Sequence record: PZ452611.1
Length of the DNA: 64,000 nucleotides
Strand: one strand, 5' to 3'
DNA from: a phage
The translations under genes and the position numbers were made by a program. The notes beneath the pieces are model-generated. The model was not told where the DNA came from, did not search any database, and saw only the letters and a list, made by a program, of their open reading frames with translations. How positions within the stretch are numbered: the first letter of the stretch is position 1; each line of letters begins with the position of its first letter. Shown one piece after another: positions 5,100-60,595 of this stretch.

Positions 5100-6845
5100 A
5101 TGGCGCAAGACATGACAAGCTTCGAGCAGGCGGTAGATCAAGTAATTGTTGATTCTGAACGTTTGCACTTGATTGTCAACGGTAACGCTGTGGATGAAGT
5201 TGTCGTAGAGGATGGGACCACTATCCCTACGGTACGAAAAGCCATGCTTGACACCCTTTATTTTAAAACGCCACCAATCCCTTGGGCGTATGGTGCATCC
5301 ACAACAGTTTTTAACCAGTTGTATGAGTTTAAAGGGGATACAGGCACTCAGTGGTGGTACGCCCCAGCAGCATCAAAATCTAACCCGGTTAGAATGCCAG
5401 CAGATCCTTCACAATCTCCAAACTGGAGATTATACACCGACTCTGCAGTAATGGCAAAATACTACGCAAAACTTAACAGCCCAAGGTTCGAAGGTGACCC
5501 GAGAGTACCTACACCTCCAATGGACGATAAGTCAGAGTCCATAGCAAACACAGAGTTTGTTGTTGACTATGTTGATAGCATATTTAAAGCCATGGAGGGG
5601 ATGAAAGTTACTGTAGGATCTTTGGTGGTAAAAGGTCTTACAGAACTCGCTAACACTATAGTTGGTGGCACCCTTACCTTACATGGACCTGTTAATGGGG
5701 CAGATTCTACTGCACGCTTTAGGAATCTAATCCTCACGGCAAATACTTCTACACTTACTTTTGCGTGGAGCGATCCTAAGCATGCAGACTGGAGAAGTAC
5801 AGAGCTGCAACCTCATGAAGTGTCCACCCACAGGGTTATAGCTGACACTATAACTTCTGGGAAACCAGTGGCTAATAATAACGATGTGCATTTTGATGGT
5901 CTGGGTAATAACTTTTTTGACTACGTGTACATTCGTGGTAATGCCATGAAGGCAGCAACCGAACCGACATTGCAGGTCGATGGGACCACCAGGGTTAAGA
6001 ACCTTGAGGTGACAGGTACCGTTACAGGGATAACATACTCTGTCGATGGCACCATGATCTACCCTAGCTATATTGAAAGCACGGGTGATGCATTGATAAA
6101 TGGCGATTTGGAGGTTGGCGGGTCTGTAGTTATTCGAGGTACAGCCTCTATCCAAAATATAGCTCTGAATACTCTAAGAGTCAATGAGCGTGCAACTTTT
6201 GAAGGAGAAGGGCTTACAGCTAATAAAGGTACAATTACCGAGCTGACCACCACCACTTTAACTGCAACAACTGCAAACTCTGAAAACTGCAACATTACCA
6301 GAAACTTACAGGTAAATGGAGATGTTAGTTTAAACGCCGCAGGGACTGGCACCACCTACCTTCACAACCTTGAAATATCCGGCACAGTGACTGGGTGGCT
6401 GCCAGACTTCTCTAATGTCAACTTTGTTTGTAATGGCATCAACTCCAGTGGTAAGATAACCACCTCTCAAGAAATTGAGGCGGGTAAAACCATTACTGCC
6501 CCTACTTTCCACGCAGGAAAGGTAGATTTTGATTTAGAGGAGGTTGACGCGTCCAGTGGGACATGGACACCTAACGGACAGGCCAGTATGTATGTTGTCC
6601 ACGCTAAAGGGGATTTTACAATAGGTCAGTGGCCTGGGACATCAGCGGAAGATAAACCTTATCCATTCACTGCAGTTATCTATGTAATTCAGGATGCTGT
6701 AGGTCACAACGTGACTTTGCACGATAAGTATGCTATCCTGTCGGCAACACCTGTTATTAACAACAAGGCTAACAGTGTTACCCTGCTGCAATTAACATAT
6801 TGTGGTGTTGGTGATATCGTAGACGTAGTAATTGCACAACGTTAA
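5100..6845 (+). CDS. tail fibre / tail spike-like protein
   Basis: 581-aa ORF, RBS aaggag; repeated short beta-strand-like motifs (VTGTVTG, EISGTVTG, LxVNG) and Gly/Thr/Asn-rich composition typical of fibre shafts; located in tail module. Confidence 0.55.
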   Translation: MAQDMTSFEQAVDQVIVDSERLHLIVNGNAVDEVVVEDGTTIPTVRKAMLDTLYFKTPPIPWAYGASTTVFNQLYEFKGDTGTQWWYAPAASKSNPVRMPADPSQSPNWRLYTDSAVMAKYYAKLNSPRFEGDPRVPTPPMDDKSESIANTEFVVDYVDSIFKAMEGMKVTVGSLVVKGLTELANTIVGGTLTLHGPVNGADSTARFRNLILTANTSTLTFAWSDPKHADWRSTELQPHEVSTHRVIADTITSGKPVANNNDVHFDGLGNNFFDYVYIRGNAMKAATEPTLQVDGTTRVKNLEVTGTVTGITYSVDGTMIYPSYIESTGDALINGDLEVGGSVVIRGTASIQNIALNTLRVNERATFEGEGLTANKGTITELTTTTLTATTANSENCNITRNLQVNGDVSLNAAGTGTTYLHNLEISGTVTGWLPDFSNVNFVCNGINSSGKITTSQEIEAGKTITAPTFHAGKVDFDLEEVDASSGTWTPNGQASMYVVHAKGDFTIGQWPGTSAEDKPYPFTAVIYVIQDAVGHNVTLHDKYAILSATPVINNKANSVTLLQLTYCGVGDIVDVVIAQR

Positions 6846-56442: not shown

Positions 56443-56519
56443 CATGAATTGCTAAAGACTGATCTGCGAACTGCTGTATTATCAACTAATCAAAACGAAC
56501 CACATAAAGAGGAAACATC

Positions 56520-56783
56520 ATGAAACGTCTGGATCAGCTTAAATTAGTTCAGTACATGGCCTACAGAATTCTTGAAGTCCAAAAAGGTAGCAAAAAAGAG
56601 GTTTGCGAGAAAGCTTATAAGATCTTTACCCGCAAAAAAGATGACTGGATGCTACGCCAGACCAAAAAGGCTGACATCTTGGGGTACCTGGAAGAAGAGA
56701 TCCGACTTGAAGAGCAAGAAGAGATCCGCCGCAGTGAGGCAGATTATCAGGCAGCTTGGGAAAACTGGATGAGTAACAAATAA
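56520..56783 (+). CDS. hypothetical protein
   Basis: 87-aa ORF, conserved UTR context aaagaggaaacatcATG. Confidence 0.5.
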   Translation: MKRLDQLKLVQYMAYRILEVQKGSKKEVCEKAYKIFTRKKDDWMLRQTKKADILGYLEEEIRLEEQEEIRRSEADYQAAWENWMSNK

Positions 56784-56852
56784 TACAACAAGTTGCACGA
56801 TCAGGGGGGCAATAAAGCCCCTTGATCACATAAAAATTATGCTATCCTTGGT

Positions 56853-56881
56853 TGACAAGGATCGGCAGTTTTGCTATATTC
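56853..56881 (+). promoter_or_regulatory. sigma70-like promoter
   Basis: TTGACA - 17 nt - TATATT upstream of ORF 56930. Confidence 0.5.
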
Positions 56882-56929
56882 TTTTTTGAAGGGAAGTTGT
56901 AAGAAAATTAACTAAGAGGTAAAAACACC

Positions 56930-57349
56930 ATGAACATTAAATCTAATAATCCGGCATATAGCTTTGATAACGCTTTTTGTCACGGTCCGGCGGCGAAAGG
57001 ATTCGAAATCGATGGTAAACTAATTATTGTCAATGTTGACGGGGAAGAGGTTGCAGTATATCCGGTGGCAGACGTTAAAAGCCGTTTGCAATGCCGCATG
57101 GATGTTACCGCCTACCAGCTTGATCCGGTCCGCATAGTTGCCCTGGTCCTGGAGGAAGAGATCAAAGCCATGCATCATAGCAATAAGTTTATCGGTGACG
57201 CGCAAGATAATATGAAGGTATGCCGCTATAAAGTTAATGAAGTGCTTAAAGAATACGGCTTCAAAGATCTGATGATCAAGCGTGATGAAAAATTCCGTTA
57301 TCGTAACGACCTGGCAAATCGAATCTATGAAATATACGAATCATTATAA
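56930..57349 (+). CDS. hypothetical protein
   Basis: 139-aa ORF, RBS aagagg. Confidence 0.5.
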   Translation: MNIKSNNPAYSFDNAFCHGPAAKGFEIDGKLIIVNVDGEEVAVYPVADVKSRLQCRMDVTAYQLDPVRIVALVLEEEIKAMHHSNKFIGDAQDNMKVCRYKVNEVLKEYGFKDLMIKRDEKFRYRNDLANRIYEIYESL

Positions 57350-57367
57350 TTTCTTAACTAAACTATC

Positions 57368-57396
57368 AGGGGCTTTAAAAGGCCCCTTTCTTTTGT
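57368..57396 (+). terminator. putative intrinsic terminator ending the early-type cluster
   Basis: AGGGGC-tttaaaa-GGCCCCT hairpin followed by TTCTTTTG. Confidence 0.6.
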
Positions 57397-58329
57397 CTGT
57401 ATTTCTCCTACCACAAACGGCCCAGCCTGGCAAGTGGAATAATTGACTAGCCAGCAATTACCAACACTGTACAAATATACATATAAAATAACTATTGCAT
57501 AATCTTTCATCTTGTGGTAGCAGGGCCATTTTTACACGTTTTCCTTCCAAAATTGCACGTAATGCAGCTATTGCATAAAATTTAACCTGATGCACATCTT
57601 CAATAGCTTGTCAACAACTAAAAATCTTTATAAGTCATACACTTACATAACCACAAAAGCGTGTTCTACGTGAAAAATCGAGTATAACTATAGCCGCCAG
57701 ATCTCAGAATTTACGTACGCTCACCATTCTATAGTCTGCTAAGTATTTATTCCAACCATAGAATAACAGAATAGTCAATACCTGCATAAAATAATTATTC
57801 GTGTAAACTGCATAACATAAATCAGCCGGGGTGTCAACATTTTTCGTAAACGGCTCGAAATTATCACTGTGAGCTATCATAAACAGAGAAATCTTTAGTC
57901 GTCTAATGTTTACTGTACGTTACTATACTAACTGGAATCATTAGATGACTAATAAAAAGATAAGAAATCATTAACAATGCAATTGTTTTATTCATAACAA
58001 TAAGGCAACTATGCAAACGAATGGCATGGCGCGACGGAGTCGCGACATAATATAAAAGCAGTAACCATCACCCCCGTGATAGTTTGTCTGCAAACTATTA
58101 ATCAGATCATAGTTGCCTTGTATTTAGTTAATCATGACATAAACTCAGGCATAGCCTTCGTCTCGAGGATGTTAACAAGCAAGGCAACTATAGATCTTCT
58201 AATAGTTGCCCTGCTTTTATATTATGTCATAGAAACACCCGAAGGGGTGACCAAAGGTCACCTGGCATAGCCAGTGAAATATTGTAAACAAGTTAATTAT
58301 TATCATGCAAACGAATGGCATGGCTTATC

Positions 58330-58500
58330 ATCTCTGTGTAAATAGTTTGTTTGTAAACAGTTTATACGTGAACAGTTAGCTGTGTAAACTATCAGGCATG
58401 TAAGCTATTGAGCATGTAAACAGTAAAGGTCGTGAACAGTAAGCGAGCGAATAGTAATGGCGTGAACAATGACAGCGTAAACAGTCAGGCATGTCAATTA
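58330..58500. repeat. iteron-like array (about 11 direct repeats, period ~15-16 bp)
   Basis: GT(A/G)AAC(A/T)(G/A)T cores (gtgtaaatagt, ttgtaaacagt, cgtgaacagt, gtgtaaactat, atgtaagctat, atgtaaacagt, cgtgaacagt, gcgaatagt, cgtgaacaat, gcgtaaacagt, atgtcaatta) at regular ~15-16 bp spacing in a non-coding stretch. Confidence 0.65.
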
Positions 58501-59953
58501 TGTTCAGTGTGTCACCATTATGTCATATTGTGTCAGACAAGTTTTTCTCCTCTTTGTCAAGTGCTGCATGAAAAATTTACAATCTGGTATGGTAGCATTT
58601 TTGCGGCCCTGTTTACATTCAGTACTGTATGTATAAGCCTTGTTGTGTGGGCGCTTAGACGTCTAGACGGTTGGAAGTCTGCAGGTCAATATCTAATCTA
58701 TTGGTTGCTAACTATATCCCACACAAATAGTAAGAAATGCAATTGTTATATGCGTAAACTGTAACTCATGTTATCAATCCCTGTATGGATCGCCAGTGGT
58801 GCGCATAATAGGTATTATGTTAAATTGCCAGTAATGATAACTATTCTCACAGTGATAGGTATTCTCATTCAACCCCACAAGATAGGTTGCAAATGTTGTG
58901 CCACTGTGTGAACGGCCTCGCCTATTAATTTGCCTCACTGCCTCGATATTTGAGAATTATTATAAGAATGAGAAGTATTCCCATTTCGTCCGCCTGGCAG
59001 CACTCCTGTAGGTCAGGTCAAAATCGGGAGAGAACTGGACCTGTTCAGATATTTCTGGCTGGCTCTTCAGGTCTGTGTGGGAAAAGCCGACCCCTCCGGC
59101 GGCGGGGAGGGGGTCAATTAAAAAATTTACGGGGCATATGAAGCGCTCTTCAGGTAAGGCATGTATTATGGGATGAAACCCTCTTCAGGAAATGATATTT
59201 GTGGGTGTGATATTTGCTGGAAAGCTAGATATGACTGGACTCCTGGCGGGGCAGGGGTAGTACAGACAGGGGAAATATGGGGGATGTAGTTGGGTAAATT
59301 GATCAGGCAGGTAGAGTATGGAATATGTTACGAGTATGTTAAATATGGAGGGTGAATATCTGCAGGATTTGTGTGTAAAATCAAAGACTTAAGTGGTGTT
59401 GTGGTATTTTCTATAAATAATTCAAGTTTAATAGGTGATATTTGTCCCTATCCACTTTGTGTGGTAAACAGATTCAGATGAGATTGGTTTACGAGTGTAT
59501 ACATAATATACAAATTAAAGATACAAGAAACCCCCCTCCCCCTTCGGCTACCATTCACCTTTTCCTCTGACTGGTACTTAAACACTTATTCAGACTCTTC
59601 AGGTTATCACCCATATATCATATGGCAGTGACTGGTGTCCTCCGGCCCCTCTTTCGTCACCCGTCCGCTTCGCCATGCTAATGCCATAGCCAATGGTTCG
59701 GTTGTTCACCCTGTTCACTCAGGTGTATCTCCATACCCCTTCAAACCGAAGAGAACAGAAAACCCGAATTACTCGGTAAAAGAAAAGAGAAGAACTTAAT
59801 TTTATCAGGATAAGCAAGAATGTCAAGGCATGACTGCTCACTAAACAAGCAAACAGTCATGTGTGGGAGGTAAGTGATTGTGGTGGTAGGAAATTTAGTT
59901 GAAAGATGTGTTATAGGTGCTCCCAGCACTTTAGCCGGGTAGCTAATTGTGTG

Positions 59954-60169
59954 TCAGTCCAGCGGTTCATCCTCTACTTCACTGAAATCAATGTTCATGG
60001 TCTCTTCCCAACCATCGATCTCAGCACAAGAGTGAAGTTCTTTAGGGTTTACTCCCAAAGCCTCAGCAACAGAGTCTATATTTAACACCTCTGGCAGGTA
60101 TGATTCATCGAATTCAAGGTAAATCAGGCCACGAGTGTTGTCAGCCCCACCAAATATTTCTATCTTCAT
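59954..60169 (-). CDS. hypothetical acidic protein
   Basis: ORF 59954-60235; internal ATG (M23) preceded by agaggag chosen as start. Confidence 0.4.
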   Translation of the reverse strand: MKIEIFGGADNTRGLIYLEFDESYLPEVLNIDSVAEALGVNPKELHSCAEIDGWEETMNIDFSEVEDEPLD

Positions 60170-60289
60170 GAAATCTCCTCTGGAAATGAGAGTGTGAACA
60201 GGGTTTATACGTTCCAATGCACTGGAATTATGCACGTTTGCCTCTTCAGGCCATGCTTTAGCATGAGGAACCTGTGTGGGCTCGGTGCT

Positions 60290-60595
60290 TCATAGTCTAC
60301 CACCCCTGAACTCTTCGTGCTCAGGCATAATAGAGAACCAGATATCTACGATGTCCTCCCACGTCAGGTCATCAGCCTCAGGATCTATCTGGAGCGAAGA
60401 TGGAGAATCTTCAGAATCGAAGTTTTCCTCTTTCGCTGGCTCAGCCAAGGGACATATAGTCACTCCTTTGGATGTCTCTTCAGATGCATGTGTGTTTATC
60501 ATGTTCCACCCGTGAGTATTCCTGCAACAGCTGCTATGGACGTAATGATCATCAGGATCACCACCAAAACTTCGGACAATGTTTTCATTGTGCAC
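60290..60595 (-). CDS. hypothetical acidic protein
   Basis: 101-aa ORF on - strand, GTG start with poorly spaced RBS; uncertain. Confidence 0.3.
   Translation of the reverse strand: MHNENIVRSFGGDPDDHYVHSSCCRNTHGWNMINTHASEETSKGVTICPLAEPAKEENFDSEDSPSSLQIDPEADDLTWEDIVDIWFSIMPEHEEFRGGRL

Follow-up and report, generated by a model that had tools for sequence, protein, structure and literature searches.

Concatemer junctions of phages T7 and T3 carry pac sequences and arrays of short repeats that flank a 160-bp terminal repeat. Ends of the T7 type require the terminal repeat to be duplicated, and a DNA hairpin intermediate has been reported (Chung, Nardone & Hinkle 1990). In phage T5, the 'Repeat Region 3'/injection stop signal is a cis-acting region of nested palindromes, spaced inverted repeats, paired direct repeats and nine short direct repeats, the function of which is still debated (Davison, bioRxiv 10.1101/866236). 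In phage ICP1, the termini lie in a 1.3-kb space free of open reading frames (ORFs) beside which a late rolling-circle origin was placed, and a link between replication and packaging has been proposed; the two PhageTerm positions, 431 (+) and 891 (−), are 460 bp apart, and the phage was called headful (pac) (Barth et al. 2020, PMC7145576). Here we analyse a 64,000-nt stretch of phage DNA (sequence record PZ452611.1; 'the window' hereafter means this whole stretch), which is that of Escherichia phage V5/rV5, and describe a 185-nt quasi-palindrome bracketed by a 20-nt direct repeat. The element lies in a 2.6-kb stretch without annotated genes (window ~57350–59953), close to a physical end of the chromosome.

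The 1.9 kb around the element matches about 120 Vequintavirus records, with an identity of 100% to Escherichia coli O157 typing phage 5 and of 99.9% to phage V5/rV5. A myovirus of 138 kb, rV5 relies on the host RNA polymerase and has T7-like replication proteins; its genome paper drew the gap as a grey 'non-coding' box, in which bidirectional terminators were expected and not found (PMC3606486). We found no published description of the palindrome element in the rV5, LL12, Korf or BASEL papers. Few coliphages are isolated as often as those of the rV5 type, which also feature in typing sets and therapeutic cocktails; the box, unexplained since 2013, may bear on how myoviruses with a short direct terminal repeat (DTR) generate their ends. 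Joined here are the positions of the physical ends, repeat arrays that reach the cut site, and a covarying palindrome with matched 20-mers in five lineages.

The quasi-palindrome and the genome end

The initial annotation of this DNA described a short sequence and its reverse complement alternating four times, and a 20-nt direct repeat. A repeat search recovered the four 11-mer sites and both 20-mers, far beyond chance: allowing up to one mismatch, the 64 kb contain the 11-mer 7 times where 1.49 occurrences are expected, a count of 7 is reached in 0 of 100 shuffles, and 4 of the 7 fall within 211 nt at the element. The first, site A (AAGGCAACTAT, 58002–58012, + strand), is kept in every Vequintavirus ortholog examined, FV3 included. 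It overlaps the start of the first 20-mer and lies outside the palindrome. The alternation exists; the other three sites are not independent, since site B (reverse complement ATAGTTGCCTT, 58109–58119), site C (AAGGCAACTAT, 58181–58191, + strand) and site D (reverse complement ATAGTTGCCCT, 58202–58212) are parts of the two arms of one quasi-palindrome spanning 58044–58228.

The quasi-palindrome is closed by a perfect 18-nt inverted repeat (58044–58061 and 58211–58228). Further in, GCAAACTAT (58090–58098) pairs with site D (58202–58212) and site B (58109–58120) pairs with site C (58180–58191). The arms comprise sites B, C and D, the 18-nt inverted repeat and GCAAACTAT, the right half of a small palindrome (ATAGTTTG-TCTG-CAAACTAT, 58079–58098). 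The predicted fold is a long rod with one side-branch hairpin that has a CCCC loop (58063–58084), and the 341 nt from 57995 to 58335 fold far better than shuffled sequences on both strands (z −7.95 for the − strand, −7.27 for the + strand). At the base of the rod lies a junction, GGCGCGAC-N6-GCGACA (58028–58049, + strand), that is conserved across four lineages (see below). In rV5 it includes a hairpin, CGCGAC-GGA-GTCGCG (58030–58044), that the other lineages do not keep; a promoter hairpin of the N4 type was considered for it and rejected for want of conservation in lineages 2–4. An attenuator-like switch between A:B plus C:D and B:C was also rejected, as B, C and D form a single rod-like palindrome and the sites are absent in other lineages. 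The tip of the rV5 palindrome carries a 33-nt insertion (58140–58172), which none of the 15 other aligned orthologs has and which contains a small hairpin of its own (GGC-ATA-GCC).

The palindrome is bracketed by two exact copies of the 20-mer ATGCAAACGAATGGCATGGC, both on the + strand. Copy 1 (58011–58030) lies just 5′ of the palindrome. Copy 2 (58305–58324) starts 294 nt from copy 1, 77 nt 3′ of the palindrome, and is conserved although its surroundings are rich in indels. It is followed on the same strand by an iteron array (58338–58485) of 10 units resembling GT[A/G]AA[C/T]AGT, all in one orientation and spaced 15–16 nt apart, and by short TGTCA repeats (58492–58535) with a period of about 10 nt, which run up to the cut site TGTCA|GACAAG. 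The number of iterons ranges from 0 (V18) to about 13 (JES2013) across orthologs, and that of the TGTCA repeats also varies; the cut-site junction is identical in 16 of 16 orthologs. A functional link between the palindrome sites and the iterons, which had been proposed, is supported by a common core, GNNAAC[AT][AG]T, found in both: its density is 25.5 per kb in 57990–58500 against 0.95 per kb in the window, about 27-fold higher. GTGTC sites like those of T7 primase are present where the palindrome arms end and among the TGTCA repeats; we do not use them as evidence.

The sequence into which the arrays run is a DTR of 459 bp (58536–58994), which forms the physical genome ends of rV5-like phages. 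The HdK5 record carries an exact 459-bp repeat at both ends that maps to 58536–58994, in line with the 458-bp terminal redundancies described for HdK5 and EdH4 (Korf et al. 2019, PMC6563267). PhageTerm coordinates of LL12 map exactly to 58536 (GACAAGTTTTTCTCC...) and 58994 (...CATTTCGTCCGCC), and the independently deposited genome of bov11CS3 begins at 58994. Three independent determinations thus agree on a fixed-end, non-permuted DTR in these close relatives, which are 92–95% identical to rV5 here and from which, rather than from rV5 virions, the placement is taken. KPP-1, a Klebsiella member of the subfamily, has a 514-bp DTR and T7-type packaging. The region also marks the correct start coordinate for Vequintavirus genome records.

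The order of features is therefore gp159, its terminator, an AT-rich spacer, site A and 20-mer copy 1, the palindrome, a variable stretch, 20-mer copy 2, the iterons, the TGTCA repeats and the cut site. Only the variable stretch, copy 2 and the repeat arrays separate the palindrome from the DTR, a distance of 308 nt in rV5 and of roughly 70–350 nt in 16 Vequintavirus orthologs. The region had been taken to flank a replication origin; the 'iteron array' instead abuts a chromosome end. Our tentative reading, to which we assign a probability of about 0.4, is that the element constitutes the inner part of a control region that lies sub-terminally, at the concatemer junction of rV5 DNA, and that it acts in cis, as DNA able to form a hairpin, in making, copying or packaging the ends.

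Conservation and covariation

Within the rV5 clade the element is under strong constraint. In an alignment of 16 orthologs, 57995–58230 is almost invariant, loops and spacers as much as stems, and the sequence on both sides varies, 58231–58304 being rich in indels. Of 120 records, 118 contain the left half of the palindrome (109 nt); identity over this half reaches 99% or more in 90 of them, against 90–95% in the flanks. Conservation and folding together bear out the suggestion of a structured DNA element, and comparative genomics, named beforehand as a check, found the repeats conserved across Vequintavirus.

Two natural variants lack parts of the module. FV3 (L020, NC_019517.1, about 2055–2085), the only phage among the 120 records without the palindrome, has a precise deletion between the 20-mers: its single hybrid 20-mer has the left flank of copy 1 and the right flank of copy 2. 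The 20-mers thus behave as a recombination substrate, one of the roles first suggested for the region. V18 (L019, KY683736.1, about 1870–1940) still has the palindrome but neither copy 2 nor any iteron; its junction shows a T12 run, possibly a sequencing artefact.

The two copies of the 20-mer match each other within a genome. In L046 both have a T at position 14, and in L032 both carry the same T-to-C change; four genomes have mixed copies (G,T). The 20-mer also differs between lineages, with both copies again matched within one genome. Such matching points to gene conversion between the two, or else to a single factor that recognises both.

The variable stretch 3′ of the palindrome holds, in a subset of orthologs, a GC-rich cassette of 39 nt (58236–58274) outside the conserved core. 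Its three hairpins are CACCC-GAAG-GGGTG, GGTGACC-AAA-GGTCACC and CTGGC-ATA-GCCAG. In L032 and L036 the cassette sits inside the apical loop, with stems that covary between lineages. It also has a 50-nt match, at 90% identity, in non-coding DNA of capsid-gene-bearing E. coli plasmids of 13.6 kb (for example, pE275a_13, NZ_CP035869.1, 10647–10697). When the element was compared by BLAST with 5,426 E. coli genomes, this 50-nt cassette was the only match, on small plasmids only. Judged from these matches, the cassette is apparently a small mobile element.

Three further lineages keep the same layout with different sequences. The syntenic relative L004 is 76–88% identical to rV5 where the two can be aligned; it has a direct repeat of 21–30 nt with copies 243 nt apart, the junction GGCGCGAC...GCGACA and a perfect 17-nt inverted repeat, GACATAATAACGCTGAG. 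A third version is found in phages A73, A5-4 and W70, and a fourth came from a degenerate pattern scan of viral and metagenome contigs. Of the 75 matches in that scan, 56 lacked a perfectly paired arm of 12 nt or longer and were discarded as probably fortuitous. In each of the four lineages, representatives have a gp159 homolog upstream of the module. Outside these, the Phapecoctavirus Schickermooser has an analogue with no sequence similarity to rV5, in which a perfect 15-bp closing stem surrounds two hairpins (DNA fold z −6.5); it lies downstream of a gp159 homolog and 210 nt before a 329-bp DTR. Adjacency to a DTR was established in Vequintavirus and Schickermooser.

Several details of these relatives are recorded as observations in their own right. 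The non-coding gap of L004 contains three perfect DnaA boxes (TGTGGATAA) within 40 nt (5845–5884), and lineage 2 has two or three perfect boxes about 600–630 nt beyond the palindrome, two in the case of L036 (6430–6457). A73 (L026, 6220–6269) and A5-4 have two one-mismatch boxes each. A73 also has a 103-nt tandem duplication (5352–5409 and 5455–5512) with a third copy of the direct repeat; as it coincides with the point at which the gene numbering wraps (A73_1/A73_264), it may be an artefact of joining the assembly ends.

In all four lineages the closing stem is perfect, 16–18 bp long and different in sequence. With four lineages only and an alignment built from the arms themselves, both bases have been replaced in 11 of the 18 pairs, and in no pair has a single base been replaced alone; pairing holds in 97% of cells, and none of 500 shuffles reaches this result. 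The base-pairing of the closing stem is thus, as far as the sequences tell, under selection. The C4-loop hairpin also covaries: ATCAC-CCCC-GTGAT in rV5 becomes AATAACAC-CCCC-GTGTTATT in lineage 2. The interior of the palindrome is wholly replaced between lineages.

GNA triloops are associated with DNA hairpins. Triloops of this type (GGA, GTA and GAA) occur at the element, and wobble pairs occupy 0 of 72 closing-stem cells. Both features fit hairpins of DNA.

A proposed role and its rivals

We propose that the element acts in cis, as DNA. Since the iterons and the palindrome sites share the core GNNAACWRT and the 20-mers are identical, all three would be putative sites for a phage-encoded sequence-specific protein, most plausibly an end-recognition (small terminase-type) protein. 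Such a protein would mark the junction and position cutting 200–500 bp away. Nicking and strand displacement at the junction would expose a single strand, on which the palindrome could fold into a long hairpin; this could stall or prime fill-in synthesis, so that one repeat copy of the concatemer becomes the two copies of the mature ends, in the manner of the hairpin model for T7. The element would improve fitness without being strictly essential.

A more specific form of this mechanism, which we consider improbable, is a telomere-like self-templating hairpin that folds on the displaced strand in each cycle and primes duplication of the 459-bp repeat. If it were true, self-templating would keep the arms complementary and so explain arms that are perfect, free of wobble pairs and different in each of four lineages, and the end-recognition protein would load at the matched 20-mers. 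It would also provide a concrete mechanism of end formation for short-DTR myoviruses, conserved across Vequintavirinae and Phapecoctavirus.

Several observations weigh against a DNA element that serves the ends. The covariation count has the narrow basis given above. In two lineages the C4-loop hairpin is extended by wobble pairs on the − strand alone, which fits RNA better, and the two strands fold almost equally, so folding energy does not separate DNA from RNA. If the records are correct, FV3 and V18 suggest that the palindrome and the iterons, respectively, are each dispensable alone; neither would then be strictly required for making ends, barring redundancy, deletions in the laboratory or assembly errors. 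The same two natural deletion variants, together with stem-breaking and compensatory changes, make the question directly testable.

Among the alternatives, the one that survives best is a late (rolling-circle or secondary) replication origin beside the terminus, with replication feeding packaging, which we regard as unlikely. An initiator would bind the iterons and 20-mers, the AT-rich spacer would unwind, and the extruded palindrome hairpin would be nicked or primed. The parts are there, in the form of tandem iterons and an AT-rich stretch of 600 nt with the palindrome between them. Stable triloop hairpins occur in single-strand origins. In ICP1, whose polymerase and primase-helicase are homologous to those of rV5, a late rolling-circle origin was placed beside the termini, and the lineage 2 relatives have perfect DnaA boxes. 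In rV5 itself, however, 57350–59953 contains no DnaA box at up to one mismatch and the adjacent genes include no initiator-like gene, their products having no Pfam domain and matching only PHROGs of unknown function; no origin-specific feature was found. Nor does an origin sit easily with an iteron number that ranges from 0 to about 13, with FV3 and V18 each lacking a major part, or with the lack of a comparable palindrome in the ORF-less region of ICP1, and the turns in GC skew coincide with changes in the direction of transcription. A replication-fork barrier, also suggested at the outset, found no specific support.

We think it improbable that the element instead encodes a structured non-coding RNA of about 150–300 nt from one strand, the covarying stems being RNA helices. 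The folding z-scores and the compensatory changes in the closing stem and the C4-loop hairpin would suit such an RNA, the latter being equally expected for a DNA hairpin, as would the G.U extension of the C4-loop hairpin on the − strand in two lineages and the GNRA-type loops (GCGA and GGGA) in inserted cassettes. The strand signals conflict, however, with loop purines pointing to the + strand and wobble pairs to the − strand, and the lack of wobble in the closing stem would be unusual in long RNA helices. Within the rV5 clade, loops and spacers as invariant as the stems suggest a constraint on the sequence itself, beyond pairing, and between lineages the interior is wholly replaced. An Rfam scan of 56500–60500 at E ≤ 1 returned two sub-threshold matches only, both on the gp159 terminator. 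Neither the 16-ortholog alignment nor promoter calls revealed a conserved sigma-70 promoter on either side of the palindrome, the sequence just 3′ of it is rich in indels, and the literature on transcriptomes of rV5-like phages yielded nothing usable. DNA is favoured over RNA because the stems are perfect and free of wobble, and because neither a promoter nor an Rfam match was found.

The direct repeats that flank the palindrome, and the resemblance of FV3 to an empty or excised site, could also point to a palindrome inserted as selfish or neutral DNA, for example as a miniature mobile element or an excisable cassette, with no role for the phage and an identity between genomes that would reflect recent spread. 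The near-identity of the element across genomes whose flanks differ by 5–10% would follow, and small hairpin cassettes do move through the region and occur on unrelated plasmids. The invariant block, however, is 57995–58230 and does not coincide with the interval between the 20-mers, in which the last 75 nt are the most variable. The same position and junction in four diverged lineages argue for long vertical residence with compensatory evolution, and only 1 phage among 120 records, FV3, is without the palindrome. The element is single-copy, and apart from the 50-nt cassette there is no other copy in the window or in E. coli genomes; a mobile element would be expected in several copies or at varying locations. 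This reading is doubtful, more so than an RNA.

Least probable is a bidirectional terminator or insulator between the convergent gene blocks, of the kind that the rV5 genome paper had expected here (PMC3606486): the C:D hairpin (58177–58216) is followed by TTTTATATTAT on the + strand and there are two terminator-like calls on the − strand (58084–58063 and 58249–58236), but the strong gp159 terminator and the gp158 hairpin should stop transcripts 0.6 and 1.5 kb before the element, the T-tracts are not conserved in lineages 2–4, and the matched 20-mers and the 18-bp long-range stem would be left unexplained.

Surrounding features and comparison with known systems

The gap is bounded by two convergent gene blocks. 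To its left, gp159 (56930–57349, + strand) is the last gene of its block and is followed by an intrinsic terminator (57368–57387, + strand), an 8-pair stem and a T-run, which is annotated as a terminator in Murica and HdK5. To its right, gp158 (59954–60235, − strand) is the last gene of the other block, with a terminator-like hairpin on its 3′ side at 59776–59764. The 139-residue gp159 is 88–93% identical across Vequintavirus, three unclassified relatives and Phapecoctavirus, and in these phages no other gene separates it from the sub-terminal non-coding region, although the remaining neighbours can differ. As such, gp159 is a candidate partner of the element. No function could be assigned to gp158, gp159, gp160 or gp161 from Pfam or PHROGs; for the first three there was no Pfam domain, and PHROGs matches were to families of unknown function only. 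AlphaFold2, run on the single gp159 sequence, gave an unusable model (mean confidence score, pLDDT, 48.7).

Between the gp159 terminator and site A lies a gene-free spacer (57400–57994) with a GC content of 0.32–0.37 and an excess of C over G, the GC skew falling to −0.27. The skew turns where the direction of transcription changes. Over the element region as a whole the GC content is 0.32–0.39, against about 0.40–0.47 nearby, in keeping with its first description as AT-rich. The ORFs in 57400–58000 had been called spurious, and in 18 orthologs they behave as such: substitutions are spread evenly over the codon positions (16/16/16 and 11/11/13), a 58-codon ORF is intact in 5 of the 18 and a 45-codon ORF in 1. 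In the same orthologs, 168 of 641 spacer positions (26%) are variable.

Two features lie on the far side of the DTR. The block 59500–59850 is 99.5–100% conserved among 5 Vequintavirus orthologs, a higher level than in the genes beside it. Within it, at 59826–59799 on the − strand, lies the gap's best sigma-70-like promoter (TTGACA-16-TAAAAT, with an extended −10); the block has no Rfam match, and its − strand folds as RNA no better than shuffles (z −0.73). The 9-mer CTCTTCAGG occurs five times on the + strand to the right of the DTR (59063, 59146, 59181, 59595 and 60242), out of 6 copies in the whole window against 0.47 expected, and recurs on the right-hand side of the module in L004 and A73. 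These copies may therefore form a second group of binding sites, lying beyond the terminal repeat.

Of the described systems, iteron-type origins such as phage lambda ori and those of theta plasmids share with rV5 the tandem short repeats beside an AT-rich stretch and the inverted copies nearby. rV5 differs in having no adjacent initiator gene and no DnaA boxes, and in an array that abuts a terminase cut site; the 15–16-nt period and the range of 0 to about 13 iterons are atypical for such origins.

ICP1 has a replisome related to that of the rV5 clade, and the 460 bp between its two PhageTerm positions compare with the 459 bp of the rV5 DTR. Its ORF-less region, unlike that of rV5, has weak repeats only and no long palindrome. 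ICP1, although called headful, might carry a short DTR like those of the rV5-like phages.

Closest in layout to the rV5 module, among architectures already described, are the T7 junction and the T5 region. The T5 region resembles that of rV5 as a conserved untranslated region at the boundary of a terminal repeat (bioRxiv 10.1101/866236). It lies mostly inside a 10-kb repeat and has 8 DnaA boxes, whereas that of rV5 lies outside a 459-bp repeat and has none. The two share no sequence similarity, and the two-step DNA injection of T5 is not known for rV5.

Finally, rV5 can be set beside T7 and T3. It differs from T7 in being a 138-kb myovirus that uses the host RNA polymerase, and its hairpin is predicted from sequence; the palindrome is also much larger, at 150–185 nt, has a copy of the 20-nt direct repeat on each side and can be dispensed with in FV3. 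Both systems nevertheless have a short, non-permuted terminal repeat, arrays of short repeats that abut it, and an inverted repeat near the junction, which in T7 has been proposed to fold back while the terminal repeat is duplicated.

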